Of a stretch of 64,000 bases of DNA, positions 6,499 through 22,637 are shown one piece after another (within the stretch, counting starts at the first letter, position 1; each line of letters begins with the position of its first letter). This DNA is from a virus. The notes beneath the pieces were generated by a model. That model searched no databases. It saw only the letters and a program-made list of their open reading frames with translations, and was not told the DNA's origin. The stretch lies in IMG/VR virus record IMGVR_UViG_3300025009_000052. One strand, 5' to 3'. A program made the translations under genes and the position numbers.

Positions 6499-8393
6499 TG
6501 TCAAATAGCAAAGCATATATTAGGCATATTTATAAAAATACGGAAGATAGTCATCAGACTTCCCCAGCTTATGTAATGACCTTTGTTAGATGGAATAACC
6601 GAGATACTGTTAATTATAAGGAAGCTGAAGTTGAAACTAGAAAGCCTTTGGTTGTAATAAACGATTGTGTTGATTTACAGGTAACAAATACAAAACAAAA
6701 CGTAACGTCTTCTTTTTCAGCAACACTTAGGGCTGGAGATATTAATTACTCAACAGCGGTTCATCCTGGGGATTATGTATTAATCAATATGGTTAATTTT
6801 CAAGACAAAGCCTATGAGATTTACCAAAGAGCCCTCAAGAGCCAACCTATCAATGAATTTCATGACGGATTTAAAGGCTTATTTAAAGTACAAACAGTTA
6901 GGCGTAAAATAGAAATTAATCCAGAAAGCGGATTGAAGAGTTATTATTTTGTAGTTCATGGTTTTGGATTTACCGAAATGAAAACTCAACTTTATTATGA
7001 TCCAGTTATTAGTACGGTATTCCAACAGTCAGATGTTTTATTTATATCTCAGTTTGCTAAGTATTGGAACGAAATAGCTACCTCTGCTAGTAACAAGAAA
7101 AACATTCAAGAAATAATGATTATTCTATTTAAGTTATTGTTGGGAACAGGATTAAAAAATACCGACTTTCAAATATCACCTACCCAAAACGTACATTTTA
7201 AAGTACCAAGTACTGTAGCGAGATTGTTAGGTAGACAATCGTTAGGAGTTAGCGAGCCAGTAATTCCAGATATTTACAACTTTATTTTCGGCATATGGGA
7301 TAATCCAGCTCAGCAAATCAAAGAAGATCAAGGATCAGAATATAAAGGATTTAATCCAAATGCTAAGTATCACAAAAACGATTCTAATTTCTATACTATC
7401 GGTAAAGAAATAGAAGGTTGGAGAATCTTAGCTGCTGAGAATTTCAATCAAAAAGAAATTTGGAGTGTGTTACAATCATATTTGAATGGAACTGTTAACG
7501 AAATGTACACAACATATCGGGTTAGTCCAGAAAATAACAATCGAGTTTACCCAACTGTAGTAGTTAGACAAAAACCATTTTCATCAGAGCATTATGTGTC
7601 TCCTCAAGTTACTACACCTGTTAAACCAGAACCCAAACCATATACTAAATTTTTATCATTACCCAGATGGAAAATATCGTCTGATTTGATGTTTATGGTT
7701 GATTTGGGTAAAGATGAGGCAGCTAGGGTTAACTTTGTTCAAGTGTTTGGTAGAAGCTTAGCCGCTAGTGATGCTGAGAATAGGTCCATGCAAGTAGGTA
7801 AGGGTAATTTTTTCTATGATGGAAAGGACGTTCAAAGACATGGTTTAAAGCCAATTATTGCAAGTAGTGTATTTGATTACCCAGGTGGAATATCAGAAAC
7901 CCAATCTAGAAACTGGGCCTATCTTTTATTTGACATGCTAAATGCTGGCCAATTAAAAGAATCTGGAGCGATATCTTCTGTTGGAATAGTACACCCAATA
8001 TCTGTAGGAGATAATTTAGAGTTTGATGATTGTGTTTATCATATCGAACAAGTTACTCACAATATGAAAGAAGATCCAGATGGAAAACTATCATTTAGAA
8101 CTAATTTGATATTGTCCTTCGGAACCAATTTAAATAGTACTAAAGATTTACCAATTTACCCACAAATGCAACATACTGACTCGTATAGAGAAAGACTTAA
8201 AGATAATGCTAATGAAGGAATACTTCCAGGTGTTTCGGATACTCAGGATATTGCTGGTAGAGTACAGGGAGAAGAGGTTCAAGAAACTAAAGAACAATCG
8301 TTTACAGGTGGAAGTGTTGATAAGAAGGGTATGGAGAGAGCTAGTAGCTTATCCTATAATGTTAAAAAAGATAAATTAAGTAAGGATGAATAA
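6498..8393 (+). CDS. Putative baseplate hub (gp27/Mu gp44-like) protein
   Basis: Lies between tape measure and spike; FSATL...GDYVLI N-terminus and ISVGDNL...YHIEQVTH C-terminus typical of hub proteins; TAATG overlap start. Confidence 0.6.
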   Translation: MSNSKAYIRHIYKNTEDSHQTSPAYVMTFVRWNNRDTVNYKEAEVETRKPLVVINDCVDLQVTNTKQNVTSSFSATLRAGDINYSTAVHPGDYVLINMVNFQDKAYEIYQRALKSQPINEFHDGFKGLFKVQTVRRKIEINPESGLKSYYFVVHGFGFTEMKTQLYYDPVISTVFQQSDVLFISQFAKYWNEIATSASNKKNIQEIMIILFKLLLGTGLKNTDFQISPTQNVHFKVPSTVARLLGRQSLGVSEPVIPDIYNFIFGIWDNPAQQIKEDQGSEYKGFNPNAKYHKNDSNFYTIGKEIEGWRILAAENFNQKEIWSVLQSYLNGTVNEMYTTYRVSPENNNRVYPTVVVRQKPFSSEHYVSPQVTTPVKPEPKPYTKFLSLPRWKISSDLMFMVDLGKDEAARVNFVQVFGRSLAASDAENRSMQVGKGNFFYDGKDVQRHGLKPIIASSVFDYPGGISETQSRNWAYLLFDMLNAGQLKESGAISSVGIVHPISVGDNLEFDDCVYHIEQVTHNMKEDPDGKLSFRTNLILSFGTNLNSTKDLPIYPQMQHTDSYRERLKDNANEGILPGVSDTQDIAGRVQGEEVQETKEQSFTGGSVDKKGMERASSLSYNVKKDKLSKDE

Positions 8394-9484
8394 TGGCTGA
8401 AAAATATTCCCCAGTACTACCAAGTTCATTATTAGAGCAAGCCGGCGATGAGTTCGACGGTTTTAAATCTACCTATAATAACTTTTCATTGAAAACTGGA
8501 ATTATACTCAAATCATATGATATTGACGATGTAAATAATATATCAAAAAACTTTGTTGAGTATGATGTAATTGCAATTGAATCACAAGGTAATTTAGCCA
8601 CTGGGCCCGTTATTTTTAAGAAATGCCCTTCATTAGAAGGATTTGGCGGTGTGGCCAATTTCTATGAGGCTAAGCTAAAAGCATCTTCTAACGATAAGGT
8701 AAAATATGACGGTGAAATAGCTAAAAGCGATGGATCTGTAGTTTTATTGTTATGTATTAATGGAAATGAAGATAGCGCTATGATCATAGGATCAAGTAAA
8801 CACCCAGCCAGAAAAACTACACTAACTAAAGAAGCTGGCCAGCATTTAGAAGGTGAGTATAATGGAGTTAACTGGCAAGTTAATAAGGATGGGGAACTAA
8901 CAATTACCTTTAAGTCCCCATCTAGTATTGATAACCAAAAAGTTAAGTATAAGGATGAAAAAGCTAAGGGAACATATTTAAAGATTGATAAAACCGGATC
9001 TATAGATATTAATGACGGAGCTACTGAAAATATTAAAATAGACAAAACGAATAAAACCATTGGTATTAAGGCAGACAAGGACGTTAGCGTTAGTACTAAT
9101 GGAAGTTTTAAAGTAACAGCTAAAGAAAATATTCAAATGAAGTCCACTAAAGATTTATTACTTGAAGCTGAGGGTAAAGCCGATATTATCATTAAAAAAG
9201 ATATGAGTTTTGAGATATCTAAAAACCTTAAAGGTAAGGCGGGCCAGATTGAGTTAGAATCTGACTCTATCACTAAGATTAAAACCAAACAATTAATGGT
9301 TCAAGGCGATATGGTTCAAATCCAAGCTTCCCAAGTACAATTACAAGCTTCTATGATAATGTTAGGTAATGGTGGAACACCTGCCGTTACTATGATGACG
9401 AAGTTCTTGGGGATTGGTTTCGCCGGAACACCAGTTGTTAGCTCAGCTATCGGACCAATGTCAAGTTCTGTCTTCATAGCATAA
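8393..9484 (+). CDS. Putative baseplate central spike (gp5/gpV-like)
   Basis: N-terminal OB-like region ending VVLLLCING...IIG, then repetitive beta-strand (beta-helix-like) segments. Confidence 0.65.
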   Translation: MAEKYSPVLPSSLLEQAGDEFDGFKSTYNNFSLKTGIILKSYDIDDVNNISKNFVEYDVIAIESQGNLATGPVIFKKCPSLEGFGGVANFYEAKLKASSNDKVKYDGEIAKSDGSVVLLLCINGNEDSAMIIGSSKHPARKTTLTKEAGQHLEGEYNGVNWQVNKDGELTITFKSPSSIDNQKVKYKDEKAKGTYLKIDKTGSIDINDGATENIKIDKTNKTIGIKADKDVSVSTNGSFKVTAKENIQMKSTKDLLLEAEGKADIIIKKDMSFEISKNLKGKAGQIELESDSITKIKTKQLMVQGDMVQIQASQVQLQASMIMLGNGGTPAVTMMTKFLGIGFAGTPVVSSAIGPMSSSVFIA

Positions 9485-9543
9485 TAGACCAACAATAGTA
9501 ATCTATACACCATAGGTAGGATAATCTACCATTGGAGATTAAT

Positions 9544-10440
9544 ATGTTAAAGTATACTACAGAATATGTTAGAGAGTTTTTAGAAAAAATAGGATGGAAA
9601 ATGCTATCCAACGAATATACCGGATATAATAAACCAATTGCTGTTATGTGTCCCAACAAACATGTGCAGAAGAAATTGTTTAAGGATATAGTTGGAGGCG
9701 GAAAATGTATGAAGTGTCATTATTTATCTGGGAAAGCAGGTAAACCTACCCATAAATATGAATATGTAAAAGAATTTGTAGAAAAAGAAGGATATCATTT
9801 GTTGTCTAAGACATATAAAAGACAATCTGATCTATTAGAAATGAGCTGTAAAAATGAGCATAAGTGCTATATTTCATTTAAAAAATTTAAAACAGGTAGA
9901 AGGTGTCGATATTGCGACCCTAGCAGAAAAATGGAATTTGATGAAATATGTTTAAGAGCTATTGAATTTGGTTTCAAAATACTAGATACAGAATATTCCC
10001 CTAAAAAGAAACTACATATAGAGTGTGTAAATGGTCATGTTATGGAAAAATATTGGAATAATTTCCATCATAAACCAGCATGTGGAGAGTGTCATAATCC
10101 CTATAAGAATATGACTAGGGAGGAGTATCGCAAAATGTATAATGTAACAGATAAGGGAATTTATTCTAGATATTCTGGCGATTGCAATAGGACTAATCGC
10201 TTAAAACGTGGTATCCAAATGCAATTGACTTTTGAACAATTCAGTGAAATTATAAATAAAAACTGTTCATATTGTGGTTCCCTTAATTGTAGAGGGGTAG
10301 ATCGTAAAGATTCTTCCGGCAATTATGATTTGGAAAATTCAGTGCCTTGCTGTAAATACTGTAATAGTATGAAAAATTCAATGACCGTAGAGGAGTTTCT
10401 AAAACACATAGAAAAAATAGCCAAACATAGCCTAATCTAA
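9544..10440 (+). CDS. HNH homing-endonuclease-like protein with 3 N-terminal C-x3-H/CxxC Zn repeats
   Basis: CSYCG...GVDRKDSSGNYDLENSVPCCKYCNSMK HNH motif; three ~60-aa repeats; GGAG SD before ATG 9544. Confidence 0.85.
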   Translation: MLKYTTEYVREFLEKIGWKMLSNEYTGYNKPIAVMCPNKHVQKKLFKDIVGGGKCMKCHYLSGKAGKPTHKYEYVKEFVEKEGYHLLSKTYKRQSDLLEMSCKNEHKCYISFKKFKTGRRCRYCDPSRKMEFDEICLRAIEFGFKILDTEYSPKKKLHIECVNGHVMEKYWNNFHHKPACGECHNPYKNMTREEYRKMYNVTDKGIYSRYSGDCNRTNRLKRGIQMQLTFEQFSEIINKNCSYCGSLNCRGVDRKDSSGNYDLENSVPCCKYCNSMKNSMTVEEFLKHIEKIAKHSLI

Positions 10441-10465
10441 AATAATTCATCTATTTTATCTAAAA

Positions 10466-10477
10466 TTGTGGTATATC
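10466..10477 (+). promoter_or_regulatory. Extended -10 (early-type) promoter TTGTGGTATATC
   Basis: Recurrent motif at the head of the accessory block. Confidence 0.6.
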
Positions 10478-10520
10478 TAGTTATATAGTCCCAACCTTTT
10501 TTTGTAACTGAGGAGTAAAA

Positions 10521-10643
10521 ATGGACGACGAAGATTTAAGTATGTATTTGACCGATTTTGTTTGTGAAAGCGGGCTGTGGGATAATTTCTTAAAGTTTCT
10601 TGAGAAAAAAGGATTCTCAGAAGAAGAGTTGGAGGATCTATAA
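10521..10643 (+). CDS. Small acidic protein (40 aa, not in ORF track)
   Basis: GAGGAG SD; MDDEDLSMYLTDFVCESGLWDNFLKFLEKKGFSEEELEDL; TAATG overlap with the next gene. Confidence 0.7.
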   Translation: MDDEDLSMYLTDFVCESGLWDNFLKFLEKKGFSEEELEDL

Positions 10644-10898
10644 TGAAAACAACATTATTAGCCCTTATTGTTAGTATCGCCGTCTTAATCACGTCATTTT
10701 CTATTTTGGTTTATAGAATAACCGAATATAACGAAAAAGAAGCACAGTTTGAAGAGCGTACTTCATCAATAAAAACATACCTCAGTAATAAAGTACCTGA
10801 GTAATAAAGTACCTGAGGGTGGATATAGTATATGTGATATCGACCCTTTCAATTCATTATGCCCATGTGATAAGGTCATATATTGGAGAAATAGATGA
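10643..10898 (+). pseudogene. Membrane-anchored small protein gene truncated by a 16-bp tandem duplication
   Basis: GGAGG SD, N-terminal TM, stop at 10802-10804. Removing one repeat copy gives a 79-aa ORF ending in an ATGA overlap with 10895. Confidence 0.7.
10784..10817 (+). repeat. 16-bp tandem duplication AGTAATAAAGTACCTG x2
   Basis: Exact copies at 10784-10799 and 10800-10815. Confidence 0.95.
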
Positions 10899-11323
10899 AA
10901 TACGACAATTTAGCTGTAGATATGGTAAGCGAAGCGCTTGGCTTAGCAGAAGACGGTTGCGAGGTAACTAGGCTTTACGCTCCAGTATTGAAGTTCTTTG
11001 ACGTTAATTATCTTGAGGTTGTATACCTAAGATGTCCAATAGTCGATATGAGTATAAAGTTTGTAGTTCGTATTTGTAAACCAATACCACTCACTTTAAA
11101 GACCATATCTATTAATGTTGATGGTCTTAAGGGAACTCAGAAGGATTTATTAGACCAATTAAAGCTAAGGTGCTTAGAAGAATGGAGATCTAATTTTAAG
11201 AATGCGTATAAATCTGACGAGTCAGATGAGGAAGCCAAAAAGACCTTAGAGAAGTTCAATAATATTAAAAAAGTTAAGCTGATTGAGGTAAGGGTAAATC
11301 AGGAGCAATTCAATGAAAAATGA
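10895..11323 (+). CDS. Hypothetical protein
   Basis: GGAG SD; 142 aa. Confidence 0.7.
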   Translation: MKYDNLAVDMVSEALGLAEDGCEVTRLYAPVLKFFDVNYLEVVYLRCPIVDMSIKFVVRICKPIPLTLKTISINVDGLKGTQKDLLDQLKLRCLEEWRSNFKNAYKSDESDEEAKKTLEKFNNIKKVKLIEVRVNQEQFNEK

Positions 11324-12044
11324 CGATCTTGGTACTAGAATGAAAGAACAGTATGAAAATAGGACGAGGATTAAGTTACCTAGACGAACAAATACCATAA
11401 TTAGATTAGATGGAAAAGCGTTCCATACCTTTACTAAAGACTTCAATAGACCCTTTGATGTAAGATTTATTTACTTAATGAACGAAACGGCTGAGTATCT
11501 TTGTGAGAATATTCAAGGATGTAAGTTCGCATATGTTCAATCAGATGAAATATCATTATTATTAACCGATTACGATAAAATTACCTCAGAAGCTTTCTTT
11601 GATGGTAATATTCAGAAAATCACTAGCATAACAGCATCCATGGCCACTATGATATTTAATGAAATGTTAAATGAAGATGATAGAATTACTGAAAAATCCC
11701 AAAGAGCAATGTTTGACTCAAGAGCTTTTACAATTGCAGATAAAGAAGAGGTAATAAATTATTTTATATGGAGACAAAAAGATGCCGTAAGAAATAGCGT
11801 TCAAATGGTAGCTCAGAGTTTATATTCTCACAAAGAACTACAAGGTAAAAATTGTTCACAATTACAAGACATGATTTTTAATAAGGGACAGAATTGGAAT
11901 GATTATCCAATTGGACAAAAAAGAGGTAGGTGTGTTGTGAAAGATTCGTCTGGATATTGGACAATATCTGACCCACCAACATTTACCCAAGATCGGGATT
12001 TTATTGGTAATTTAATGAATGTAACTATAGAGGATAACATATGA
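11313..12044 (+). CDS. tRNA(His) guanylyltransferase / Thg1-like 3'-5' polymerase
   Basis: RMKxYE, IIRLDGKAFHTFT, YVQSDEISLLL, FDSRAF, YFIWRQKDAVRNS, KRGR motifs. Confidence 0.95.
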   Translation: MKNDDLGTRMKEQYENRTRIKLPRRTNTIIRLDGKAFHTFTKDFNRPFDVRFIYLMNETAEYLCENIQGCKFAYVQSDEISLLLTDYDKITSEAFFDGNIQKITSITASMATMIFNEMLNEDDRITEKSQRAMFDSRAFTIADKEEVINYFIWRQKDAVRNSVQMVAQSLYSHKELQGKNCSQLQDMIFNKGQNWNDYPIGQKRGRCVVKDSSGYWTISDPPTFTQDRDFIGNLMNVTIEDNI

Positions 12045-12304
12045 TAACCAATGAAGCGATAATTTTCGAGTTGTTGTTTTTAGCAGAAAACAATGCATTA
12101 GAAGAATTTGAGGAAAATTACGATCCTGAATTTTGTGTGGAAGGTCTTTGGGTAGGATTAATTAGTAATGGGTTCGATTGGCAAAAAACCTCTCAAGGTT
12201 GGCACTATTGGGAACACCTCGATAGACTATTTAGCGCACAAAATATATTTCCTAAATGGGATACAGACTCTTACTGTATGTATTGCGGAAAAATTCATGA
12301 ATAA
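12041..12304 (+). CDS. Small acidic/aromatic protein, family member 1 of 3
   Basis: [10 protein letters not shown]...[14 protein letters not shown] shared with 13273 and 13522. Confidence 0.75.
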
Positions 12305-12770
12305 ACCAAAAGAAAAACTATTTTCTGTAACCTTAGATGATTGTGAAGTACAACCATATCGTGGCTCAGGAGCGGGTGGCCAACACAGAAACAAAACTGA
12401 TTCGGCAATTAGAATAGTACATATTGCTAGCGGTGCAGTGGGACAATGTGAAAACCATCGTAGCCAACACCAAAACAAACAAGAGGCATTTCGTAGAATG
12501 TTTGAGACCAAAACCTTCCAGGATTGGATGAGGATTGAGACGGCTAGAGTTACGGGGCAATTAGCCGAGATTGAAAAGAAAGTAGATAAGGAAATGAAAC
12601 AAGTTAAAATAGAAATTAAGCAAGATGGTAAGTGGTCGGAAGAAAAGATAGAAATCCCCACAATAACTTTTGAAGAGCTCTCGAACAGTAAACAAATTTG
12701 TGCAATTATATCACCAGACACATATAAACAACTTGTAAAACTATCACAACAAACAAAGGATAAGAAATGA
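12297..12770 (+). CDS. Stand-alone class I release-factor (GGQ) peptidyl-tRNA hydrolase domain protein
   Basis: [22 protein letters not shown]...HRSQHQNK; start re-called to ATG 12297. Confidence 0.9.
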
Positions 12771-13267
12771 AAGAAGAAATCGGAAAATTAGTACAAGCGG
12801 CAGAAACCATTGGATTAAGTGATGAATTGGATTTTAGAACCATTGCCGAACATCTTGTAACTGAAAAGGTTGGACCAACAATTATGCCAGATCAGGATAC
12901 TATTGTTAAATTAAACGAAGTTCAATTAGAAAGAGCTAAGGCCAAACTTAAAGAGAATCAAAGAAAAGAACTTGAAGAGGTAGATCCGAGAGTAATGTTT
13001 TTAAAGCTAAAACAAGGTTTTCTAGAACAGTATGGTCGAATTAACGCAGCGATTACAGCTTGCGATACTGTTAAAAGTGATTGTAATTCAATGAGATATG
13101 ACCTAAAATCAATGCAAAATGAACTTAATCGCATAGCAGAAAACAATAGAAATCTAAATAGAGATATGGAAGTTCAAGCAAATGTTTTGAAAGAATTGTT
13201 GCTTTATGTTGAAAAAGTTACAACTCCGTGGTATATTAAGGTATGGAATCGCATTAAAAGGAAATAG
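12767..13267 (+). CDS. Coiled-coil hypothetical protein
   Basis: Heptad-rich; ends in a PWY..W..I basic amphipathic tail. Confidence 0.7.
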
Positions 13268-13272
13268 ACATA

Positions 13273-13509
13273 ATGAGAAGCAAGATGGAAATATTCTTTT
13301 TATTGTTTTTAGAAAGCCATGATGCATTAGATAAGTATTTGATTAATCACGGTGATCGGATAGATCTTGTACTAGAATCGTTCTTTGAGTCGTGGTTATT
13401 TAATGGTTTTTACTGGGAACATTCACCAGAAGGGTATGGCTTTTGGTTTGATATAAATGCCGATTGGCTTTCAGAAATGGAGAATATAACTTTAGCTAAT
13501 TTGAGTTAA
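13273..13509 (+). CDS. Small acidic/aromatic protein, family member 2 of 3
   Basis: LLFLESHDAL...GFYWEHSPEGYGFW. Confidence 0.75.
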   Translation: MRSKMEIFFLLFLESHDALDKYLINHGDRIDLVLESFFESWLFNGFYWEHSPEGYGFWFDINADWLSEMENITLANLS

Positions 13510-13521
13510 CTTGGAGATACT

Positions 13522-13770
13522 ATGAATAAACAAGAATTAGAAATTTTAGAACTATTGTTTTTAGCAGAAAACGATGCACTAGATTCATTTGAAGCAAACT
13601 TTAATGAAGTTGAGTTTAGAAGTGCAAAGTGTACATGTGGGATGTGTACGCCGCTAACTATCGTAGACGCAGGTTTTTTATGGTATAAGTCCCCTGAAGG
13701 CATGGACTATTGGGTAAATATTAATAATGAATTGGAAGAATTCACAGAGGACTTTATTAATGGAAATTAA
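13522..13770 (+). CDS. Small acidic/aromatic protein, family member 3 of 3
   Basis: LLFLAENDAL...GFLWYKSPEGMDYW; GGAG SD. Confidence 0.75.
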   Translation: MNKQELEILELLFLAENDALDSFEANFNEVEFRSAKCTCGMCTPLTIVDAGFLWYKSPEGMDYWVNINNELEEFTEDFINGN

Positions 13771-13969
13771 AAAAGGCGATAAATTATCTTTGGAAGTGCT
13801 TGTTCTAGGCGAAGAAGTTGTTATCTATGACGTTATAAATGATGATATTAAAATTGTTCAAACTGTCCATGGAATTGTTTGGCTAGATGAAAACACACCA
13901 AGGTATACATTAACACCATTGCTTGAAGAGATATTAAGCGAATTTAATATAGTATTGGGGGTTTTATGA
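13760..13969 (+). CDS. Hypothetical protein
   Basis: Start re-called to ATG 13760 after GAGG. Confidence 0.6.
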   Translation: MEIKKGDKLSLEVLVLGEEVVIYDVINDDIKIVQTVHGIVWLDENTPRYTLTPLLEEILSEFNIVLGVL

Positions 13970-14160
13970 TCTTTAGACAGTGGATCGCTATACTAGCCCT
14001 ACTATTATTAGTTCCCATAGTTTGGCCAATCTACTTAACAGTAAGATCTTTTTATTGGATAAGTGTTGTATTTTCAAATATATACGATTTACTTGAATCG
14101 GTACAAGTCAGAACAATAGTTGCTTTAATTAGATTTATATATAGGTGGGGTAATAAATAA
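13966..14160 (+). CDS. Small membrane protein
   Basis: Hydrophobic N-terminus; ATGA coupling. Confidence 0.6.
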   Translation: MIFRQWIAILALLLLVPIVWPIYLTVRSFYWISVVFSNIYDLLESVQVRTIVALIRFIYRWGNK

Positions 14161-14321
14161 TGAGATTTTTAAAAGAATTGGGTAATTTCATATTTAGTTT
14201 AGCTTGGACATCTCTTGTATTGTTGGTGGTCGGATCGTGTTCGATTGATATGATCTGCAACGATGCTAGTATCAGCAAGAAACAACCGAAAATATGTAAA
14301 ATGTGGTTTGAGGAGAAATAA
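14160..14321 (+). CDS. Small membrane/lipoprotein (53 aa, not in ORF track)
   Basis: TAATG overlap; MRFLKELGNFIFSLAWTSLVLLVVGSC... with a lipobox-like VVGSC. Confidence 0.55.
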   Translation: MRFLKELGNFIFSLAWTSLVLLVVGSCSIDMICNDASISKKQPKICKMWFEEK

Positions 14322-14642
14322 ATGAAAATAAACGAAACGGTTAGGGAAGCTTTTGAGACAGCTAAAGAAAAAGGCTGGCATGAAAATATTAACCCATTAC
14401 CAGAACTTTTAATGAAAATGGTTACGGAACTGGCTGAGGCTATGGAAGAATATAGGAACAAAACACCTTCTTTTTATATCAAGGGTGGAAAACCAGAAGG
14501 CATTGAAATTGAATTAGCTGACTGTGTAATCCGTATTATGGATTGTTTTGGTGAAAACGGTTGGGACTTAGAAAGGGCTTTGAGGGTTAAGATGGATTAT
14601 AATAAGACTAGAAGCTATAAACATGGCGGTAAGGTGTGCTAA
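14322..14642 (+). CDS. MazG-like NTP pyrophosphohydrolase
   Basis: TELAEAMEE...IELADCVIRIMD...KMDYNKTRSYKHGGK. Confidence 0.9.
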   Translation: MKINETVREAFETAKEKGWHENINPLPELLMKMVTELAEAMEEYRNKTPSFYIKGGKPEGIEIELADCVIRIMDCFGENGWDLERALRVKMDYNKTRSYKHGGKVC

Positions 14643-14860
14643 TGAAGGGCAAGATGTTGTGTGGAAACTGCGGTAAATATTCTCTTGAATGGACAAACCT
14701 TAGGGGCGAGTCTTTTTCTTATAAAGAACATCAAAAAGTCGAGTTAAAAGTTGATTTTTATGGACATAAATGCCGTGATTGTGGTAATATATCTATATGG
14801 AGCATTGATTATCCAGAATTAGATAGGGCAATCGAAGAATCTTTGGAGATAAACAAATGA
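14636..14860 (+). CDS. YgiT/MqsA-type zinc-finger domain protein lacking HTH
   Basis: CGNC...FSYKE..V...CRDCGN...ELDRAI parallels the N-terminal Zn domain of MqsA; the protein ends there. Confidence 0.65.
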   Translation: MLMKGKMLCGNCGKYSLEWTNLRGESFSYKEHQKVELKVDFYGHKCRDCGNISIWSIDYPELDRAIEESLEINK

Positions 14861-15132
14861 CAGTTAAAAAATTAGACAAAACCCATAATGCTAAGATGGT
14901 ATATATAGGAGAAATAGACTCAAAATCTGTATTTGAAACGAAACAATATTTTCTGGGAGACAATAGGGGTAGTTGGTTTGTAGTAGCAGGAAAAGATGTA
15001 TATTTAGCTAGATATATTGACAAACAAGATGCCGAAGAGCATGTCAATGCTTTAAATGATGGTTACGATCCTACAGAGGAAGAATTACAAGAAGCGTTGG
15101 GGTATTCTAATGAACTAGAAGGTAAGGAGTAG
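14857..15132 (+). CDS. Hypothetical protein
   Basis: GGAG SD; ATGA coupling. Confidence 0.65.
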   Translation: MTVKKLDKTHNAKMVYIGEIDSKSVFETKQYFLGDNRGSWFVVAGKDVYLARYIDKQDAEEHVNALNDGYDPTEEELQEALGYSNELEGKE

Positions 15133-15134
15133 AT

Positions 15135-16220
15135 ATGAGACAATTAGCAACAATTCAAACGGTTTTGAGTAAAAAACCAATTTCAGGTGCGGATAAAATT
15201 GAAGTTGTGCAAGTTAAAGGCTGGGAAGTTGTAGCTAAGAAAGATGAGTTTAATGTTGGTGACAAGGTAATTTATGTTGAAATTGATTCCAAACTACCTG
15301 ATAAGATTTATTTTGACTTTATGCGATCTAGAAATTTCAAAGTTAAGACAATTAAATTGAAGGGCCAAGTATCACAGGGGATAGTATTCCCACTAACTAT
15401 ATTGCCGACTAAAGTAAATGGATACAATATAGAAGAGGATGTAACGGAACTACTTGGAATTACTAATTATAAAGATGACGAAGAAATAAAAGACTCCGTA
15501 GATAGTAGAAAATTTAGCTGGTTAAATGTGTTATATAAATACAAGTTAACTAGATCACTTGCTAAGTTATTAACATTCAAAGCTAAAAAAGAGGCATTTC
15601 CATCGTTTATTAAAAAGACAGACGAAGACAGAATTCAGAATAAATCAAGATTTTATTACACAATAAGAGATTCTAAAGTTAGTGCTAGTGAAAAACTAGA
15701 CGGTCAGAGCGGTACATTCTTTCTTAGAAAATCTTGGTTTAAAAAAGAATTTGGTGTATGTAGTAGAAATTTGCATTTAAAAACAAAGCACCCATGTAAT
15801 TGGTGGAATATTGCCGAGAAATATGGATTTGAAGATAAGCTAAAGAAATTGAATGGAGATATTTATATTCAAGGTGAGATAGTTGGCGAGGGAATACAAA
15901 AAAATAAATATAAATTAACTGGACACAAATTTTATTTATTTAATGCATTCCTCATAAAATCACAAGAATATCTTAATTATGATGAGTTAGTCTCACTAGC
16001 AAATTGGTTAGGTTGTGAAGTAGTACCTAAAGTTGAAGTGGATTTAAGTGATTTAAATGAAGAAAATTTCATTAATAAAATGGTAGAGCGATCTAAGGGC
16101 TTTAGTAAGTTAAATGACAAAGTTATACGAGAAGGTATTGTGATAAGAGAAGATGTTTTGGAATATAAAAACTCTATTAAAGTAATTAACCCAGATTTTT
16201 TACTAAAACACGACGAGTAA
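15135..16220 (+). CDS. ATP-dependent RNA ligase, DRB0094/Rnl5 type
   Basis: N-terminal MRQLATI...GADKIE...YVEIDS...LKGQVSQG OB module; motif I EKLDG, CSRN, IQGEIVG, REGIV, KVIN. Confidence 0.92.
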   Translation: MRQLATIQTVLSKKPISGADKIEVVQVKGWEVVAKKDEFNVGDKVIYVEIDSKLPDKIYFDFMRSRNFKVKTIKLKGQVSQGIVFPLTILPTKVNGYNIEEDVTELLGITNYKDDEEIKDSVDSRKFSWLNVLYKYKLTRSLAKLLTFKAKKEAFPSFIKKTDEDRIQNKSRFYYTIRDSKVSASEKLDGQSGTFFLRKSWFKKEFGVCSRNLHLKTKHPCNWWNIAEKYGFEDKLKKLNGDIYIQGEIVGEGIQKNKYKLTGHKFYLFNAFLIKSQEYLNYDELVSLANWLGCEVVPKVEVDLSDLNEENFINKMVERSKGFSKLNDKVIREGIVIREDVLEYKNSIKVINPDFLLKHDE

Positions 16221-16223
16221 TAT

Positions 16224-16637
16224 ATGGGCGATAAAAAAGATTTAGTTGACAACATTAAAAACCACTTTGGACATGAAATAGTTGATCAATATGTTTTAAA
16301 TGGATCTGGTAAAAAGGAATGGTTCAAATATTGTCGCAATTGTAAGGTTGAAGTAGCTGAGAAACCTCTAGAAAGACCAACTAGAGATGAGCAGATAGAA
16401 AACCTACAAAGATCCTGGGCTTATGTTGCACCAAACATTGGCCAAAGTCCTAAGCAATACCAAGGATTAGACTTGGATTTGGAAGTTCCATTAGAAGACG
16501 ACGAAGATGAGTACGGAGTATTTAATAAGAGAGTTCTAAATACAATGTATGGTAGTTTAGAGTTTCTTAATGATACAGAAGATCATATGATAGATGCAAT
16601 TCGATATAGTATATCGATAAGAAGGAGAGAGGTTTAA
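16224..16637 (+). CDS. Hypothetical protein with Zn-finger-like motif
   Basis: H...YCRNCK; C-terminal DHMIDAIRY. Confidence 0.65.
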   Translation: MGDKKDLVDNIKNHFGHEIVDQYVLNGSGKKEWFKYCRNCKVEVAEKPLERPTRDEQIENLQRSWAYVAPNIGQSPKQYQGLDLDLEVPLEDDEDEYGVFNKRVLNTMYGSLEFLNDTEDHMIDAIRYSISIRRREV

Positions 16638-16728
16638 TTAAAATGAGTACACAAGAATGTATCTTTTTTTCTGTAGCGGCAATTTGTTTTGCAGCAATAA
16701 TGATTGCAATGACATTGATGGGTAATAC

Positions 16729-17376
16729 ATGAAAACTAAATTAAATATGAAGTTTGAAAACACGTTTCCTCCTGGCGGAGATATTATAAATACAGTTACA
16801 GCAACACAATCACCGGTTATTACAAAAGAATATCTAAGGGCATTTCCCAACCACATCTTTGTATTTGGCGATAATACTCTTAGGCGAGGATATGGTGGTG
16901 CGGCGGCTTTGCGTGACGAGCCGAATACTTATGGGTTTATTACAAAGATCTACCCAGATAATAATGACGCAAGTTTCTATAGACCAGAAACCTACAGGCA
17001 TATTTTTGAAGCTGAGTTGCAGAGTTTGAAAGAGTTAATAGAAGCCACTCCCAACAATATTTATTTGATTTCCCAAATAGGGGCTGGATTGGCCAATAAG
17101 TACCAAATATGGGAAAAAGTAATTAAAGATGGGCTAGAATTCTTAAGAAAGTATAAGAATGTGGTATATTTATACACAAGAGAGATAATTATGACAGAAA
17201 AATTAGAATTCCCTAGAATGTATGCTTGGAATGAAATGGTAGAGTACATAGACGAAGAACAAAGTATGTATACTAGAAGGGCACAATTGGTTAGTAGTCA
17301 AGAGGAACTTGATAAACTGTTGATTGATATTAAAAATCAAGAACAAGAGGTAATTAAAGAACATAAAGAAAAATAG
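16729..17376 (+). CDS. Phage VFGDN-motif protein (possible macro-like fold) fused in frame to a 61-aa acidic C-terminal segment
   Basis: IFVFGDN..RRGYGGAA..RDEPNTYGFITK and IGAGLA motifs; internal promoter, SD and ATG at 17159-17193. Confidence 0.65.
   Translation: MKTKLNMKFENTFPPGGDIINTVTATQSPVITKEYLRAFPNHIFVFGDNTLRRGYGGAAALRDEPNTYGFITKIYPDNNDASFYRPETYRHIFEAELQSLKELIEATPNNIYLISQIGAGLANKYQIWEKVIKDGLEFLRKYKNVVYLYTREIIMTEKLEFPRMYAWNEMVEYIDEEQSMYTRRAQLVSSQEELDKLLIDIKNQEQEVIKEHKEK
17159..17170 (+). promoter_or_regulatory. Internal extended -10 promoter ATGTGGTATATT
   Basis: Recurrent motif 20 nt before the in-frame ATG 17191, with AAGAGAG between. Confidence 0.5.
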
Positions 17377-17393
17377 TTCACCTAATATTAATT

Positions 17394-18305
17394 ATGGTCA
17401 AAAAAAGAATAAATAAAGAAAAAACGTCTGAATCAGACATGTTAAAACATGTTATTAGATTGTTACAAAAAGACGGTTGGGAAATATTTCAGGAAGTCAA
17501 TACCCCGATGGGTATAATTGACATTGTAGCTAAACAAAAGATTAAAAATATCGAAATAACTTGGGGGATTGAGGGTAAATTGTCGTTTAGTTTAGATGTG
17601 ATGAGACAAGCCCGTAATCAATTCCCTTATTTTAATTATTTTTCTATCGCAATCCCTTGTGCAAATAATGAATTTTATAAGGAAATTCTTAAAAGTAGGG
17701 GGATTGGAATAATTTTAATAGATGGCTATGCCAAAGAATATGAGCCCGCTAAATTTAAAAGAGTTAAGACAAAAAGAAAAGTATTCCTATCCGACATTAA
17801 CAAGTTAGGAACGGCAGGTAGTTCTAGCGATAGAGTTAGTTCTTTTCAAAATACAATGCAAGAAATAATGGTTAAGTTGCTAAGTCTAGGACAAATAACC
17901 GTTAAAGACCTTTTAGATGACGATAAATATCATTATAGTTCTTTGACTGGGGCTAGAATAGGAATATCTAAGGGAGTACTATATAGAGACTACCAAGATT
18001 ATTTCAATATAACCCAAGATACTCCTATGAAAATATCTCTTACAGAAAAGGGTCGGTTCGAGGCTAAAAGATCTATTTTAGAGCGGGCCATTTCAATATC
18101 TCAAAATGGCTGTATTTATTATGACGAATTACACGATCGTTTGAGATATGCTAAATTTGACTTCACCTTACTCAACTCACAGCAGTTTGGCCAACTATTC
18201 TCTAACTCTTCTAAAGAATTTATTAAAGATCGAGACTGTAGATATCAAACAGCTAAAGATATTTTATTGAGCGAGACTATAATAAATAGTTGGAAAATAA
18301 AATAG
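17394..18305 (+). CDS. PD-(D/E)xK nuclease-fold protein (MmcB-like N-terminus)
   Basis: E...QEV...IDIVA...GIEGK...QA; GIGII strand. Confidence 0.65.
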   Translation: MVKKRINKEKTSESDMLKHVIRLLQKDGWEIFQEVNTPMGIIDIVAKQKIKNIEITWGIEGKLSFSLDVMRQARNQFPYFNYFSIAIPCANNEFYKEILKSRGIGIILIDGYAKEYEPAKFKRVKTKRKVFLSDINKLGTAGSSSDRVSSFQNTMQEIMVKLLSLGQITVKDLLDDDKYHYSSLTGARIGISKGVLYRDYQDYFNITQDTPMKISLTEKGRFEAKRSILERAISISQNGCIYYDELHDRLRYAKFDFTLLNSQQFGQLFSNSSKEFIKDRDCRYQTAKDILLSETIINSWKIK

Positions 18306-18332
18306 ACATAACAATATAATTTGTGGTAATAT
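18303..18332 (+). promoter_or_regulatory. sigma70-type promoter TAGACA-18-TAATAT with TGTG extension
   Basis: TTGTGGTAATAT at 18321-18332; AAGGAG SD follows. Confidence 0.65.
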
Positions 18333-18348
18333 AGAGTAAGGAGATAGT

Positions 18349-18870
18349 ATGAGAATTTACGACATTATTGATGGAAAACTAATTGTTAATCATAACGGAT
18401 TAAAAGGATTTAGGAGTTGTAAGGTTTTTATTAAAGATAATAAAATTATACTAGAAATAGACCGAGAACAACATGTATTAGAAGAGTTGGATTTTAGACG
18501 AATAGATGACGAAATAATCTATGTTAGACATCATATGGGTAATATGGGTAGATACACATCACTAAGCGAATATAATAGGACTCTCATTGATATTAATCCT
18601 AGTGCGATACTTAGATGGTATCACAATATACCTATCCTTGGTTTACTTATGGGGAGATCAAATATTGTGCAAGATATTGCAAGTCATAGTAATTACATAC
18701 AGCAAGCTAAAAAGGATCGGGAAGAGTCGGATATACAATATAACAGTTATCGTAACCAACTTAAACAGTTAGGGGAAGAAAAAGAACGTCTACTAAAAGA
18801 ATTCAGGGCTAAGGTTGATAAATATACACAGCAATTTATAGAAGACGCTTTTCAACAGGGTTTGATATGA
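18349..18870 (+). CDS. Hypothetical protein
   Basis: AAGGAG SD; C-terminal coiled coil. Confidence 0.7.
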   Translation: MRIYDIIDGKLIVNHNGLKGFRSCKVFIKDNKIILEIDREQHVLEELDFRRIDDEIIYVRHHMGNMGRYTSLSEYNRTLIDINPSAILRWYHNIPILGLLMGRSNIVQDIASHSNYIQQAKKDREESDIQYNSYRNQLKQLGEEKERLLKEFRAKVDKYTQQFIEDAFQQGLI

Positions 18871-19439
18871 AAAGATCATATCTAATAACGCAATTAGCCG
18901 ATTTATACGAATCAATCCCCAAAGGAGCTAGCGCCTATCACATCTGTGATATGTTGATTTATAAGGCTGAGAAGTTGGGGATGTTGTCACCTTCTAATGT
19001 ACCGTTTAGTATTAATCCAGTAGTTGAAGAGGATGGGTGTGGAAATCAAACTAGATTAAAAGATTTAGTTGGTTGGGAAGACGAGAGTGATGAAGATTGG
19101 CAAGAGTCTTTTTGCGAAGAAATAGACGAACATCCAAAAACTATAAAGCAAGTCTTGAAAGAAGAAAGTATTAACAATCAAAACTGTCCCTTATGTGATA
19201 AAATAGTTGACACCGAAGGTGATTGTACAAACCCTAAATGTAATGCCTATGGGTATAGGGTTCGATGGCCACTTATAGTCTCATGTCAAACAGCTATTAC
19301 CGATAATACTAAAACCGTATTTAAAGCGTGCCCAGAATGTGAAGGGTCTGGATTTATAGGTAAACTATATCCAAGTGGCCATACCGAGGTTAAATGCGAA
19401 AGATGTAGCGGAGAAGGAATGATAGAAGATGAAGATTAG
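18867..19439 (+). CDS. Zn-finger protein with DnaJ-type CxxCxGxG motifs
   Basis: CPECEGSG and CERCSGEG. Confidence 0.65.
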   Translation: MKRSYLITQLADLYESIPKGASAYHICDMLIYKAEKLGMLSPSNVPFSINPVVEEDGCGNQTRLKDLVGWEDESDEDWQESFCEEIDEHPKTIKQVLKEESINNQNCPLCDKIVDTEGDCTNPKCNAYGYRVRWPLIVSCQTAITDNTKTVFKACPECEGSGFIGKLYPSGHTEVKCERCSGEGMIEDED

Positions 19440-19806
19440 GCTAATAAACTTTCTTTTATTCTTGTGTGATAACTTTCAATATATACTAGGTAATATATCT
19501 AGATTGCTTTCTAAAATAGCGGGGACTTTTGAAGATTATTTATTAAGACTAAAATGTAAAGAGCGTGACGCTCGCCCGATTTATAAAGTGGAAGTAAAAA
19601 ATAGGACTAAATACACTAAAGAATATTGCGGAATCACCCACTGTTGTCCATTATGGTTACATAAATTATGGAAGAAATTTATGTGCAAAAGAAATATCCA
19701 TATTTTTGACGAATCACTATCCTGTAATGACCACTTTTTAAGTTGCGACGCTTGTGACTTGGTAGTTCAAATTAAATACATAGACACTACATATGTGGAG
19801 AATTAA
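19429..19806 (+). CDS. Hypothetical Cys/His-rich protein
   Basis: Overlap-coupled ORF. Confidence 0.6.
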   Translation: MKIRLINFLLFLCDNFQYILGNISRLLSKIAGTFEDYLLRLKCKERDARPIYKVEVKNRTKYTKEYCGITHCCPLWLHKLWKKFMCKRNIHIFDESLSCNDHFLSCDACDLVVQIKYIDTTYVEN

Positions 19807-19808
19807 AC

Positions 19809-20021
19809 ATGACTGGATTAGAAGCTTTAAAATATTTACTAGAAAATAAGAACTCAACCATCTTTTTAAAAGACCGGGAAAAAGAGTATAAAATTGGCAA
19901 TAAGTATACAGATAATTACTTCCCAACTCTTTTAATGAGACATAGCCCTAAGAATATGTGGGAACCGTGTCATATAACTATCAACGATTTTCTAATGAAA
20001 GAATGGAGTTTAAATGAGTAA
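19809..20021 (+). CDS. Hypothetical protein
   Basis: GGAG SD. Confidence 0.6.
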   Translation: MTGLEALKYLLENKNSTIFLKDREKEYKIGNKYTDNYFPTLLMRHSPKNMWEPCHITINDFLMKEWSLNE

Positions 20022-20223
20022 GAAAATAGATAAATGTCAGTTTTGTGGAGGATCTGGGGCTGAAGCCTACGGAGATTATGAAACCCAAGTCTGTTACTAC
20101 TGTGGGGGCACTGGAGAGCATAGAGAAGAACATTACACCTGTAACGAATGCTCTATAAAGGACACCTGTCAATTTGCCTTTGATCTCTACAGCACTAACG
20201 GCGATTGTTTGGCGGAAAAATGA
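20014..20223 (+). CDS. Small Zn-finger protein with CxxCxGxG motifs
   Basis: CQFCGGSG, CYYCGGTG and further Cys residues. Confidence 0.65.
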   Translation: MSKKIDKCQFCGGSGAEAYGDYETQVCYYCGGTGEHREEHYTCNECSIKDTCQFAFDLYSTNGDCLAEK

Positions 20224-20672
20224 GATATATTAATATCCAAAAACATAAATCATCATGTGGTCCAATAGCCGTTATAAATGCTATTAAGTGGTTAGGTGGC
20301 AAACTGTCTTACAAATATTTAGATATGTTTGAAGCTTTTGGCTGGACTAAAAAAGGAATGGATACTAAACAAATGATGCTTATTCTAGACACTTTTGGCG
20401 TTGAATATCACGTTATTTTTAATCCATCTACAAGATTTATAGAGAACTCATTATCTAAAGGAAACGCAGCAATCCTAATGTTTAGGTGGTTTTTACCTAA
20501 TAAAAACTGTGATCACGCTACCTTTGTTTATAAAAACCACAGATCTTGGTTAGATGCCAGCAATACAATTCCATGTGGATTTACAATATTACCTAAAAAA
20601 ATATTAACTAAGTTTTTAAATACCAGTAGAAGGAAGGGATTTCCCTCTATAATGGTGGAGATTTTAGGATGA
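20220..20672 (+). CDS. Peptidase C39-like (papain-fold) protein 1
   Basis: Q-x5-CG (QKHKSSCGPIAVINA), later HATFV and ASN; ATGA start at 20220. Confidence 0.7.
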   Translation: MRYINIQKHKSSCGPIAVINAIKWLGGKLSYKYLDMFEAFGWTKKGMDTKQMMLILDTFGVEYHVIFNPSTRFIENSLSKGNAAILMFRWFLPNKNCDHATFVYKNHRSWLDASNTIPCGFTILPKKILTKFLNTSRRKGFPSIMVEILG

Positions 20673-21016
20673 GACAGCGTGATATACATTTAGAAGCCCT
20701 AGAGATGTTAAGAGAAAAGATTCAAAAAGAATACGAAGAAATATCCAAGATAGCTAACGACGATCCAGTGTCGGAACTGGGTAATTTATATCGAGAATTT
20801 AATACGATGACGACAGGTGATAAAATGGTCAATATTGATAAAATGGTCAAAAAAGAAAGAGAATTGAACGCTAGGATGGAAAAACAAAAGAACCTATCGG
20901 AATTACTCACTAAACAAAGTGATTTAAGATTTAAACTAGACAAGATAATTGGTGAAATAAACAATATTGAATATATGGCGAAACTGTATGAAAAACAAAC
21001 CTCTCCTACAAAATAA
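20669..21016 (+). CDS. Coiled-coil hypothetical protein
   Basis: Helical, charged; lies between the two C39-like genes. Confidence 0.65.
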   Translation: MRQRDIHLEALEMLREKIQKEYEEISKIANDDPVSELGNLYREFNTMTTGDKMVNIDKMVKKERELNARMEKQKNLSELLTKQSDLRFKLDKIIGEINNIEYMAKLYEKQTSPTK

Positions 21017-21449
21017 CGACTATGGCTGTGGTGTATTCGCCATAATGAACGCCATAAACAAAGTTAGTAAGAGACAGTTAACATTGGAGGACATTCCAAG
21101 GTGGGAAAAAATATTAAAAACAGATAAAGAATACGGAACGCTTAGAACAGATCTGATGTTAAAATGTCTTAGAAAGCATTTTTACGCAACTATGAGTAAA
21201 AAGTTCTCTAAGAAGAAAATGGACAATTGGTTAGATAGAGGTAACCAAGCGATTATTCTATACCCATACGAAGGCAAGTACGAGCTACACTATAGCAATA
21301 TCTTCTACAGATTTAAAGATGGCTATGAAGGTGTTAATTTCTGGATTAAAAATAATAAATGGGCCAGGTCTAGTAAAACCAATGAAAGGTGTATTAAATG
21401 GTTTTACCAGGAAGGAACTGAAATATTCTATCTAAGGGAGAGAAAATGA
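20988..21449 (+). CDS. Peptidase C39-like (papain-fold) protein 2
   Basis: QNNDYGCGVFAIMNA...GT...LHYS...GVN. Confidence 0.7.
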   Translation: MKNKPLLQNNDYGCGVFAIMNAINKVSKRQLTLEDIPRWEKILKTDKEYGTLRTDLMLKCLRKHFYATMSKKFSKKKMDNWLDRGNQAIILYPYEGKYELHYSNIFYRFKDGYEGVNFWIKNNKWARSSKTNERCIKWFYQEGTEIFYLRERK

Positions 21450-21649
21450 TTAAAGTTAAAACATATAATATTAAAACACTGAGTAAAAACTATCGGTGGG
21501 TGTGGTCGGAGCTTTACTTCACGATTCTCATAAATATATTAGGTAAAGAAAGATTATTTACGTTCAAGCTTTACTATTGGACCAAGCCCAGCAAAATATC
21601 CATGGAAGTCGCCAAAAGGATTGACCAAGCAGTAAGACATTTTGATTGA
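21446..21649 (+). CDS. Hypothetical protein
   Basis: GGAG SD, ATGA coupling. Confidence 0.55.
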   Translation: MIKVKTYNIKTLSKNYRWVWSELYFTILINILGKERLFTFKLYYWTKPSKISMEVAKRIDQAVRHFD

Positions 21650-21666
21650 TACAAGGATTAATCATT

Positions 21667-21678
21667 TTGTGGTATATT
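21667..21678 (+). promoter_or_regulatory. Extended -10 promoter TTGTGGTATATT
   Basis: Intergenic recurrent motif. Confidence 0.65.
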
Positions 21679-21694
21679 AAATAAAGAGGTATAA

Positions 21695-21934
21695 ATGAAA
21701 AATTGTGTACTAATTTCCCCTAACTTACAAGATATTGTGGATGGAAATACGAATAATACTAGTAATAATGCGATATTATTAAATAGTTATGCTCAATTTG
21801 GTGTTACAATCTATGTCAGAGAATCTGTTCCAGACAATCGATTTATGGTTTTTGATAGTAACGGAGAGTCAACTGTTTACGGCATAATAGAAGAAGATAC
21901 TGACCACACCAATCCATTTGGAGAGGAAATGTAA
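21695..21934 (+). CDS. Hypothetical protein
   Basis: GAGGT SD. Confidence 0.65.
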   Translation: MKNCVLISPNLQDIVDGNTNNTSNNAILLNSYAQFGVTIYVRESVPDNRFMVFDSNGESTVYGIIEEDTDHTNPFGEEM

Positions 21935-22452: not shown

Positions 22453-22637
22453 TGTGCGAAGTTAAGTATTATGCATTTATAAATAGTCAGAAGAAAAAGT
22501 GCCAAAGGTGTGGTGAGTTGTATCAAGGTGAAGACGAAAATATTTGTGATAGTTGTGTTAATGAGATATTGAGAGAAATGGAAGAATACGAAAACGAGTT
22601 TTATTATAGAAATATGGGTCGTGATCAAGAGTATTAA
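22452..22637 (+). CDS. Small CxxC Zn-finger protein
   Basis: CQRC...CDSC; TAATG overlap. Confidence 0.6.
   Translation: MCEVKYYAFINSQKKKCQRCGELYQGEDENICDSCVNEILREMEEYENEFYYRNMGRDQEY

Follow-up and report, generated by a model that had tools for sequence, protein, structure and literature searches.

Six co-oriented helper genes in a groundwater phage

Do six neighboring phage genes, each of which might bear on damaged translation or on toxin-antitoxin defense, act together as one pathway? The question is raised by a 64,000-nucleotide stretch of DNA (the window) from IMG/VR virus record IMGVR_UViG_3300025009_000052, in which genes for a Thg1-like protein, a GGQ release factor, a MazG-like enzyme, an orphan MqsA-type zinc domain, an Rnl5-type RNA ligase, and a DUF7831 (“VFGDN”) protein lie within about 6 kb. 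An original prediction, made from the letters of the window, had taken this clustering as the sign of an integrated translation-rescue pathway. A pathway of all six genes was not supported, because the genes are sporadic and scattered in related phages and because the GGQ (RF-1 domain) and DUF7831 genes are unlinked; the interpretation is partly supported, for the Thg1-Rnl5 pair only. The best explanation, to which we assign a probability of roughly 0.55, is a loose cargo island of individually mobile helper genes in which the Thg1-like protein and Rnl5 most likely form a fill-and-seal pair. We infer this cooperation, and the enzyme activities behind it, from the identities of the genes, their predicted folds, their distribution, and their proximity.

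The record is that of a 155-kb uncultured groundwater phage (155,481 bp, with direct terminal repeats), and the G+C content of the window is about 34%. All six genes lie on the + strand between 11.3 and 17.4 kb, and their common orientation and mostly tight junctions are as originally described. Their predicted products are as follows.

11313..12044, + strand: bacterial-type Thg1-like protein (TLP), by PF04446, phrog_4717, and 4KGK
12300..12770, + strand: stand-alone GGQ mini release factor (RF-1 domain plus helices), by PF00472 and phrog_3122
14322..14642, + strand: MazG-like all-alpha nucleoside triphosphate pyrophosphatase, by phrog_3301 (6.8e-27)
14642..14860 (start 14636 or 14642), + strand: YgiT/MqsA-type CxxC...CxxC zinc ribbon without helix-turn-helix (HTH), 72 to 74 amino acids (aa)
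15135..16220, + strand: Rnl5 (DRB0094/NgrRnl-type) nick-sealing RNA ligase, by PF21189 plus PF09414, TIGR02306, and 5COT
16729..17376, + strand: DUF7831 (“VFGDN”) protein, by PF25176, with a macrodomain-fold core (27-154) and a C-terminal coiled coil (164-214)

A hypervariable island among the baseplate genes

The six-gene run lies within a hypervariable, lineage-specific cargo island inside a baseplate gene cluster. The island and its borders comprise the following features.

8393..9484, + strand: baseplate central spike gene, gpV/gp45-like (113 homologues), the conserved left anchor
9485..21933, + strand: accessory island of about 28 co-oriented open reading frames (ORFs), 12.4 kb, between gpV and the next conserved baseplate-module gene
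9532..10440, + strand: Zn-repeat protein with an HNH-like C-terminus, at the island’s left edge (weak PF14279 HNH_5 match, E 0.013)
21934..22452, + strand: conserved baseplate-module gene, the right anchor, whose homologue directly follows gpV in 33 related loci

Some of the 113 gpV homologues carry the source names “phage baseplate assembly protein gpV” or “gp45-like,” and the closest are 55 to 62% identical (62% for P0002). Scans of IMG/VR with the DUF7831 protein or the gpV protein alone returned no relatives; relatives of gpV surfaced only when an alignment of its homologues served as the query, which fetched 66 loci from phages of 130 to 177 kb at 26 to 47% identity. These relatives keep the gene order 4051, 6492, gpV, 21934, (28323), 29004, 26412(-), 31265, 33958 (in window coordinates). 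In most of the 66, the homologue of 21934 follows gpV at a spacing of 0.03 to 1 kb, compared with 12.4 kb here. Apart from the HNH protein, no island gene was found at the gpV-21934 site in any of the related loci, and the closest relatives carry other runs of small ORFs there. It is the intervening 12.4 kb, the different cargo of the relatives, and a packing that extends beyond the six genes that place the run in a hypervariable island. Relatives of the Zn-repeat HNH protein occur in the baseplate cluster of L133 (7658-8296), L174 (8144-8527), and L196 (7446-7712), directly after gpV in the first two, a position that fits a homing endonuclease targeting the gpV-adjacent site; the protein is a probable homing endonuclease by these matches.

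Such a setting raises the prospect that the island is a dumping ground in which proximity is coincidence and none of the six products cooperate, the Thg1-like protein and Rnl5 included. The other cargo at the same site in the closest relatives and the homing endonuclease at the island’s edge both speak for it, as does tight packing, which is a genome-wide habit. GIY-YIG homing endonucleases, moreover, are the commonest shared neighbors of Thg1 and Rnl5 loci elsewhere. Caution is due here, as tight co-oriented clustering in a phage hypervariable island is weak evidence of a joint pathway.

Distribution of the six genes among related and unrelated phages

The original prediction made all six genes one integrated anti-ribotoxin pathway, an analogue of PrfH-RtcB2, in which the zinc domain would block a toxin, the GGQ protein would free ribosomes, the Thg1-like protein would refill and Rnl5 would religate the cut RNA, with the MazG-like and VFGDN proteins assisting. 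Six co-oriented genes do lie within 6 kb, and the junctions between most genes of the run are overlaps of 1 to 11 nt or gaps of less than 20 nt. Packing of this kind begins at about 10.5 kb, continues past 30 kb, and is not peculiar to the six genes. About 12 small, unrelated ORFs without assigned function are interspersed among them in what is itself a hypervariable insertion, and this counts against a six-gene pathway.

We surveyed 38 long records of the same phage family, of which 16 reach 90% completeness or more. Thg1 was present in 6 of the 38 (5 of the 16 complete records), an Rnl5-type OB ligase in 7 (4 of 16), and RF-1 in 3 (3 of 16), counts that fit independent gain and loss. Thg1 and Rnl5 occurred together in only two of the 38, G041 at a distance of 39.6 kb and G109 at 36 kb if the genome is circular, with RF-1 in the latter 66 to 75 kb from both; genes that co-occurred thus lay 36 to 75 kb apart. 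The original prediction had proposed a neighborhood analysis as its check and had named independent scattering in related phages as one half of what would tell against the pathway, and scattering is what the records show. Links outside the family were no stronger for most of the genes: RF-1 was absent from all 46 unrelated Thg1-bearing phage records (the phage’s own copy was recovered as a positive control), DUF7831 occurred in 1 of 46 Rnl5-bearing records, and Thg1 lay within 10 kb of the GGQ gene in only 2 of 33 GGQ loci.

Of the clustering claim, one pairing survives. Among the Thg1-bearing records, 17 of 46 (8 of the 11 complete ones) also carried an Rnl5-type OB ligase, within 6.5 kb in 6 of the 17; among records selected for Rnl5, Thg1 was present in 4 of 46 and was close or adjacent in 3 to 4 of those 4. 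The two genes are co-oriented neighbors in L008, L020, L040, L061, and L074. Once the records were dereplicated at 70% Thg1 identity, the pair lay within 6.5 kb in 6 of 15 lineages, where uniform placement, our null, predicts 1.57 (P 0.002). Ribonucleotide reductase, a control of comparable prevalence that is present in 16 of the 46 Thg1-bearing records, was within 6.5 kb of Thg1 in none of the 16 (Fisher p 0.018). The proximity link is real but moderate, a grade that we give because the null is crude and the lineages few.

Several loci show what fuller assemblies of such genes look like. In L035 (9992-13722), an unrelated phage, a compact co-oriented cassette encodes a Thg1-like protein and an Rnl5-type ligase together with PNKP (a kinase joined to a HAD phosphatase) and a phosphoesterase of the Metallophos family, and by its predicted products is the clearest natural example of Thg1 within a full RNA end-healing and sealing cassette. 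L011 combines Rnl1, Thg1, and SpoU, and an Rnl5-type ligase is encoded 5 kb from them. In L130 (5698-19994), a high-GC fragment of an unrelated phage, 14 kb hold genes for a Thg1-like protein, RlaP, a PrfH-like factor (RF-1 plus part of PCRF), RecA (split by an HNH-containing intein), Metallophos, and an Rnl5-type ligase. RlaP and Metallophos are recurrent neighbors of GGQ, Rnl5, and Thg1 loci; no kinase was found among the ORFs sampled around five adjacent Thg1-Rnl5 pairs.

L130 and the recurrence of RlaP are the best that can be said, beyond the packing, for a single pathway of six. With the genes sporadic and scattered in the 38 related records, RF-1 missing from the Thg1-bearing set, DUF7831 unlinked to Rnl5, site content variable, and no kinase or phosphatase encoded to treat the 5'-OH and cyclic-phosphate ends that most ribotoxins leave, we regard that pathway as highly improbable. 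Pure coincidence fares better. It sits poorly with Thg1-Rnl5 adjacency in at least five divergent lineages, with the clean ribonucleotide reductase control, and with full repair operons that include both genes, and we hold it to be possible, if on the unlikely side.

A further observation concerns other company kept by Thg1. A 944-aa protein encoded in L015 (6980-9814) matches PF05183, a family of cellular-type RNA-dependent RNA polymerases (E 3.5e-16). Eight phage loci, probably of one lineage, encode a protein of this type no more than 4 kb from Thg1; a gene of this family seems unusual for a phage.

A predicted fill-and-seal pair

The product of 11313-12044 is a predicted 3'-5' nucleotidyltransferase of the bacterial TLP type, so assigned because it is closest to 4KGK and conserves the RxDG and SDE motifs. 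It matches PF04446 at 113.9 bits (cutoff 29.2; E 6e-33), phrog_4717 at 3e-87, and the Bacillus thuringiensis TLP 4KGK at E 1.8e-63 over residues 4-232, with the two active-site stretches (“IIRLDGKAFH” and “VQSDEISLL”) aligned identically. The carboxylates of RxDG and SDE are the palm-domain metal binders in Thg1 structures. Thg1-like proteins are, to our knowledge, known to act on RNA only. Those of bacteria carry out template-directed 3'-5' extension of 5'-truncated tRNAs (PMC4820378).

By its domains, the product of 15135-16220 is a clear member of the Rnl5 family. PF21189 (N-terminal OB) covers residues 1-87 and PF09414 (adenylyltransferase) residues 181-351; TIGR02306 is matched at 160.6 bits, above its equivalog cutoff of 151.15, and the match to NgrRnl (5COT; E 3.5e-43) covers both domains. 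The KxDG motif of the lysine nucleophile (“EKLDGQS”) aligns with NgrRnl “VKLDGSS.” Ligases of this family seal 3'-OH/5'-phosphate nicks in duplexes in which RNA is the 3'-OH strand (PMC4408790, PMC5397189). For both proteins, the family assignments of the original prediction hold.

Taken together, these identities suggest a simple division of labor. The Thg1-like protein would add missing nucleotides, in the 3'-5' direction, to a 5'-phosphate RNA end, with the opposite strand of the helix as template, leaving a 3'-OH/5'-phosphate nick in the duplex for Rnl5 to close. Since the phage has no tRNA genes, it is host RNA that would be repaired; tRNA stems are the most plausible substrates, and helical parts of rRNA are possible. 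The remaining helpers would act on their own. The mini release factor would probably hydrolyze peptidyl-tRNA on stalled ribosomes; the macrodomain protein would probably remove ADP-ribose marks or process ADP-ribose derivatives or phosphates; the MazG-like enzyme would hydrolyze nucleotides; and the zinc ribbon may bind an MqsR-like partner. A theme of RNA repair or translation maintenance, as in the original prediction, is plausible for the Thg1-like protein, Rnl5, and the GGQ protein; the MazG-like enzyme and the zinc ribbon have no detectable link to the others.

Several points weigh against this fill-and-seal interpretation. Thg1 is missing from 42 of the 46 Rnl5-bearing phage records, and the proximity statistics come from few lineages under a crude uniform-placement null, in a class of accessory genes that cluster in few regions anyway. 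In the present phage the two genes are not even adjacent, 3.1 kb and about 12 ORFs lying between them. No AAA_33-type polynucleotide kinase was found in the genome, which would confine repair to 5'-phosphate/3'-OH damage unless host enzymes help. MazF, MqsR, colicin E3, and anticodon nucleases leave 5'-OH and cyclic-phosphate ends, which Rnl5 could not seal without host enzymes; repair of such cuts by Rnl5, as originally envisaged, is therefore mismatched in end chemistry. The functions of all six proteins are themselves predictions from sequence. Finally, the functions of Rnl5 ligases have been called “uncharted,” and the phenotype of a DraRnl knockout in Deinococcus, which is sensitized to radiation and delayed in genome reassembly, points to DNA repair (PMC5397189).

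A bolder version of the same idea turns the lack of a kinase into a property of the system. The Thg1-like protein and Rnl5 would be a self-sufficient, kinase-independent fill-and-seal unit for 5'-phosphate/3'-OH gaps in double-stranded parts of tRNA or rRNA, of a kind that metal-dependent (PIN-type or similar) defense nucleases could make, while the mini release factor would clear ribosomes stalled by the damage and the macrodomain would clean modified ends. We consider this unlikely in so complete a form. If such a unit were true, it would be the first physiological role for Rnl5 ligases and bacterial-type TLPs; even the looser pairing, if functional, would offer both families a concrete, testable role.

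The GGQ protein, a predicted phage mini release factor

The call of a stand-alone GGQ factor was borne out by PF00472 (4e-20) and phrog_3122 (8.2e-34), both matched via the GGQ domain only. Its family counts at least 700 members about 120 aa long, most of them metagenomic, with invariant G24, G26, G27, Q28, F73, W76, and W112 and a conserved LFSVT..DC; the window copy carries about 40 extra C-terminal residues, a tail of mixed charge. Translation most likely starts from the ATG at 12300, overlapping the stop codon of the ORF ahead of it; the family match begins there too. A start at 12168, as in the long ORF, was rejected, because the 44 codons that it would add overlap a genuine gene, one of the paralogues.

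An AlphaFold2 model (pLDDT 86) had domain 3 of RF1/RF2 as its best Foldseek match, with PrfH, mtRF-R, ArfB, and ICT1 lower. Identification as ArfB was rejected on a score of 33 bits against an NF006718 cutoff of 100, over model positions 11-42 only, and on a Foldseek rank of 47 for ArfB, with a root-mean-square deviation (rmsd) of 19.8; the mixed charge of the tail also differs from the basic C-terminal helix, joined by a linker, with which ArfB probes the empty mRNA channel. PrfH was likewise rejected (TIGR03072 60.4 bits, cutoff 166.65; no PCRF match). By these comparisons the protein is neither ArfB nor PrfH and belongs with the predicted phage mini release factors of phrog_3122, of whose stand-alone RF-1-domain proteins we know of no characterized member. 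The ligase-family matches in the genome were only Rnl5 and a DNA ligase; RtcB itself was not searched for.

The MazG-like enzyme, the zinc ribbon, and a macrodomain in DUF7831

The MazG-like protein has no Pfam or NCBIfam match and was recognized through phrog_3301. Its match to DCTPP1 is weak (E 0.07), with the E-x-x-E and E-L-x-D helices aligned.

The orphan MqsA/YgiT zinc domain seen in the original prediction is borne out by sequence comparison, though such orphans are common. It has no Pfam match of its own and reaches TIGR03830 (MqsA family) at E 5.7e-4 and 19.7 bits, below the cutoff of 61.8. In a protein atlas it falls among “YgiT-type zinc finger” clusters at 0.94, and its model aligns to MqsA models with a TM score of 0.52 to 0.58. 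Exhaustive searching with phmmer turned up 61 homologues, of which about half are stand-alone proteins of about 70 aa; among the 28 longer ones scanned, PF15731 (MqsA_antitoxin) was matched in 10 and an HTH in several. The four cysteines are invariant. The window copy has no C-terminal HTH and no adjoining toxin gene, its neighbors being the MazG-like gene and a 91-aa protein of no known function.

DUF7831 is a highly conserved and very common phage family of about 125 aa, and modeling indicates, at the level of fold, a macrodomain with its three-layer alpha/beta/alpha architecture, followed by a long coiled coil. The AlphaFold2 model has a pLDDT of 81.5. When its core was compared with 48,161 solved chains in a wide VIA-align search, the top 11 rows were all macrodomains, the best being DarG (Z 9.2, rmsd 3.0, 108 aligned), Poa1p (8.4), and TARG1 (8.0); Foldseek probabilities against Poa1p and TARG1 were 0.94 to 0.97. 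The invariant loops GDN...GGAA and GxGLAN would fit the glycine-rich ADP-ribose-binding loops of macrodomains. For so common a family this is a useful annotation. In other viruses, according to the protein atlas, DUF7831 is fused to DUF4326 (rhodanese-phosphatase-like) and to YAcAr SLOG domains; these fusions place the family in the NAD+/ADP-ribose network of PMC9503650.

A macrodomain whose best structural match is DarG also opens a route away from translation. The island might serve mainly genome integrity, with the macrodomain acting against DarT by removing ADP-ribose from DNA. Rnl5 would seal those nicks in phage DNA that have ribonucleotides on their 3'-OH side, and would work next to the ATP-dependent DNA ligase encoded 8 kb downstream (24493-25776). 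The DraRnl knockout phenotype described above agrees with this, and AdfM is a precedent for a phage macrodomain that reverses DarT2 marks on DNA (PMC13309987). On the other hand, a Z score of 8 to 9 for a macrodomain fold is uninformative on substrate, and Rnl5 recurs beside the RNA-repair genes Thg1, PNKP, Rnl1, and RlaP. As the known action of Thg1-like proteins is confined to RNA, a role centered on DNA strikes us as very unlikely.

Comparison with known RNA-repair and rescue systems

Neither the association of Thg1 with RNA ligases nor the combination of RNA repair and ribosome rescue in phages is new, and the locus is a further instance of both. Bacterial Thg1 neighborhoods with polynucleotide kinase, Macro, and RNA ligase were described by Anantharaman, Iyer, and Aravind in 2010 (PMC2904730). 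The present locus resembles them in having a TLP near an RNA ligase and a macrodomain-fold protein; it differs in lacking a kinase, the most persistent bacterial partner, and in that its genes are split by small ORFs of no known function and form no compact operon. Phage RNA ligases, nucleotide-restoring transferases including Thg1, and peptidyl-tRNA hydrolyzing factors have been reviewed as counter-defense against host attacks on translation (Iyer et al. 2021, PMC7824862; Iyer et al. 2022, PMC9503650), and phage repertoires for RNA repair and ribosome rescue are also treated by Burroughs and Aravind 2016, as cited in PMC7824862. The guild is the same here (RNA ligases, Thg1, peptidyl-tRNA hydrolyzing factors, macrodomains), and so is its sporadic, mix-and-match occurrence across large phages. 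In contrast to those repertoires, this phage has no tRNA genes, kinase, or 2H phosphoesterase, its ligase is of the Rnl5 type, its release factor is not PTH2 but a bare GGQ domain, and the genes sit inside a baseplate cluster. Particular to the locus is thus the set of a bacterial TLP, Rnl5, a bare GGQ protein, and a DUF7831 macrodomain, with no healing enzymes or tRNAs, in an unusual place within a baseplate operon.

Likeness to PrfH-RtcB2 is conceptual, in that a GGQ factor and an RNA ligase share one neighborhood. Unlike PrfH, the GGQ protein has no codon-recognition-like domain; the ligase comes from an unrelated family that needs 3'-OH/5'-phosphate ends, and the GGQ and Rnl5 genes do not co-occur as a pair in relatives. 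The window copy keeps the LFSVT..DC core, the GGQ, F73, W76, and W112 of the phage RF-1 proteins of phrog_3122 and differs from them in its C-terminal extension of about 40 residues. T4 Pnkp-Rnl1 repairs host tRNA against the PrrC anticodon nuclease (summarized in PMC7824862), and the parallel would lie in the use of phage enzymes to restore host tRNA that a defense nuclease has cut; T4, however, heals the ends by a kinase-phosphatase before ligation, and no such enzyme is encoded here. The zinc ribbon, finally, shares the homologous CxxC...CxxC zinc domain of MqsA (YgiT) and, unlike it, comes without an HTH and without an MqsR-like toxin gene.

Other features of the window

No tRNA or transfer-messenger RNA (tmRNA) gene was found in the window or in the whole genome, and no Rfam family matched within the window. 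The 6-kb run had no megablast match among 50,697 phage records, an 815-aa neighbor protein had no tblastn match among phage records, and PADLOC gave no meaningful match for ten island proteins. The stretch is present in 15 groundwater or soil DNA sequencing runs, which may be its source, and no RNA sequencing run is listed as containing it; two partial-match runs held low-depth fragments of the same sequence and no island variants. Compared with related phages, the window has a second expansion between the conserved 21934 and 26412/29004 (window 22452-26412), within which lies the ATP-dependent DNA ligase gene (24493-25776; phrog_114, 9.5e-84). Further features of the island are as follows.

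10466..10475, + strand: promoter-like motif TTGTGGTATA in the gap ahead of the island’s gene run
12041..12304, + strand: small phrog_16354 protein, first of three paralogues (28 to 40% identity; DNA repeat family D1)
12767..13267, + strand: coiled-coil protein (weak coiled-coil matches only; no PHROG)
13273-13509 and 13522-13770, + strand: two more phrog_16354 paralogues, by PHROG and pairwise comparison
17394..18305, + strand: 303-aa protein of phrog_12193 (no Pfam, NCBIfam, or PADLOC match)

The three phrog_16354 paralogues (78 to 87 aa) share the motifs LLFL..(D)AL and GF.W..S.EG..(Y)W and lie among the Thg1, GGQ, and coiled-coil genes; in two of them the 5' ends are 81% identical across 57 nt of DNA. 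Scans for sigma-70 promoters and terminators gave no excess over shuffles. The motif WTRTGGTATW, by comparison, has 16 copies in the window against 3.3 expected, a count reached in none of 100 shuffles. Its copies, which on the + strand include 10466, 13678, 17159, 21667, 23129, 27582, and 47891, mostly lie just upstream of gene starts, and the motif is probably a phage promoter class common to island and baseplate-module genes. A tandem 16-bp duplication (AATAAAGTACCTGAGT/G) at 10787-10818 lies at the end of a small membrane-protein ORF (10643-10804).

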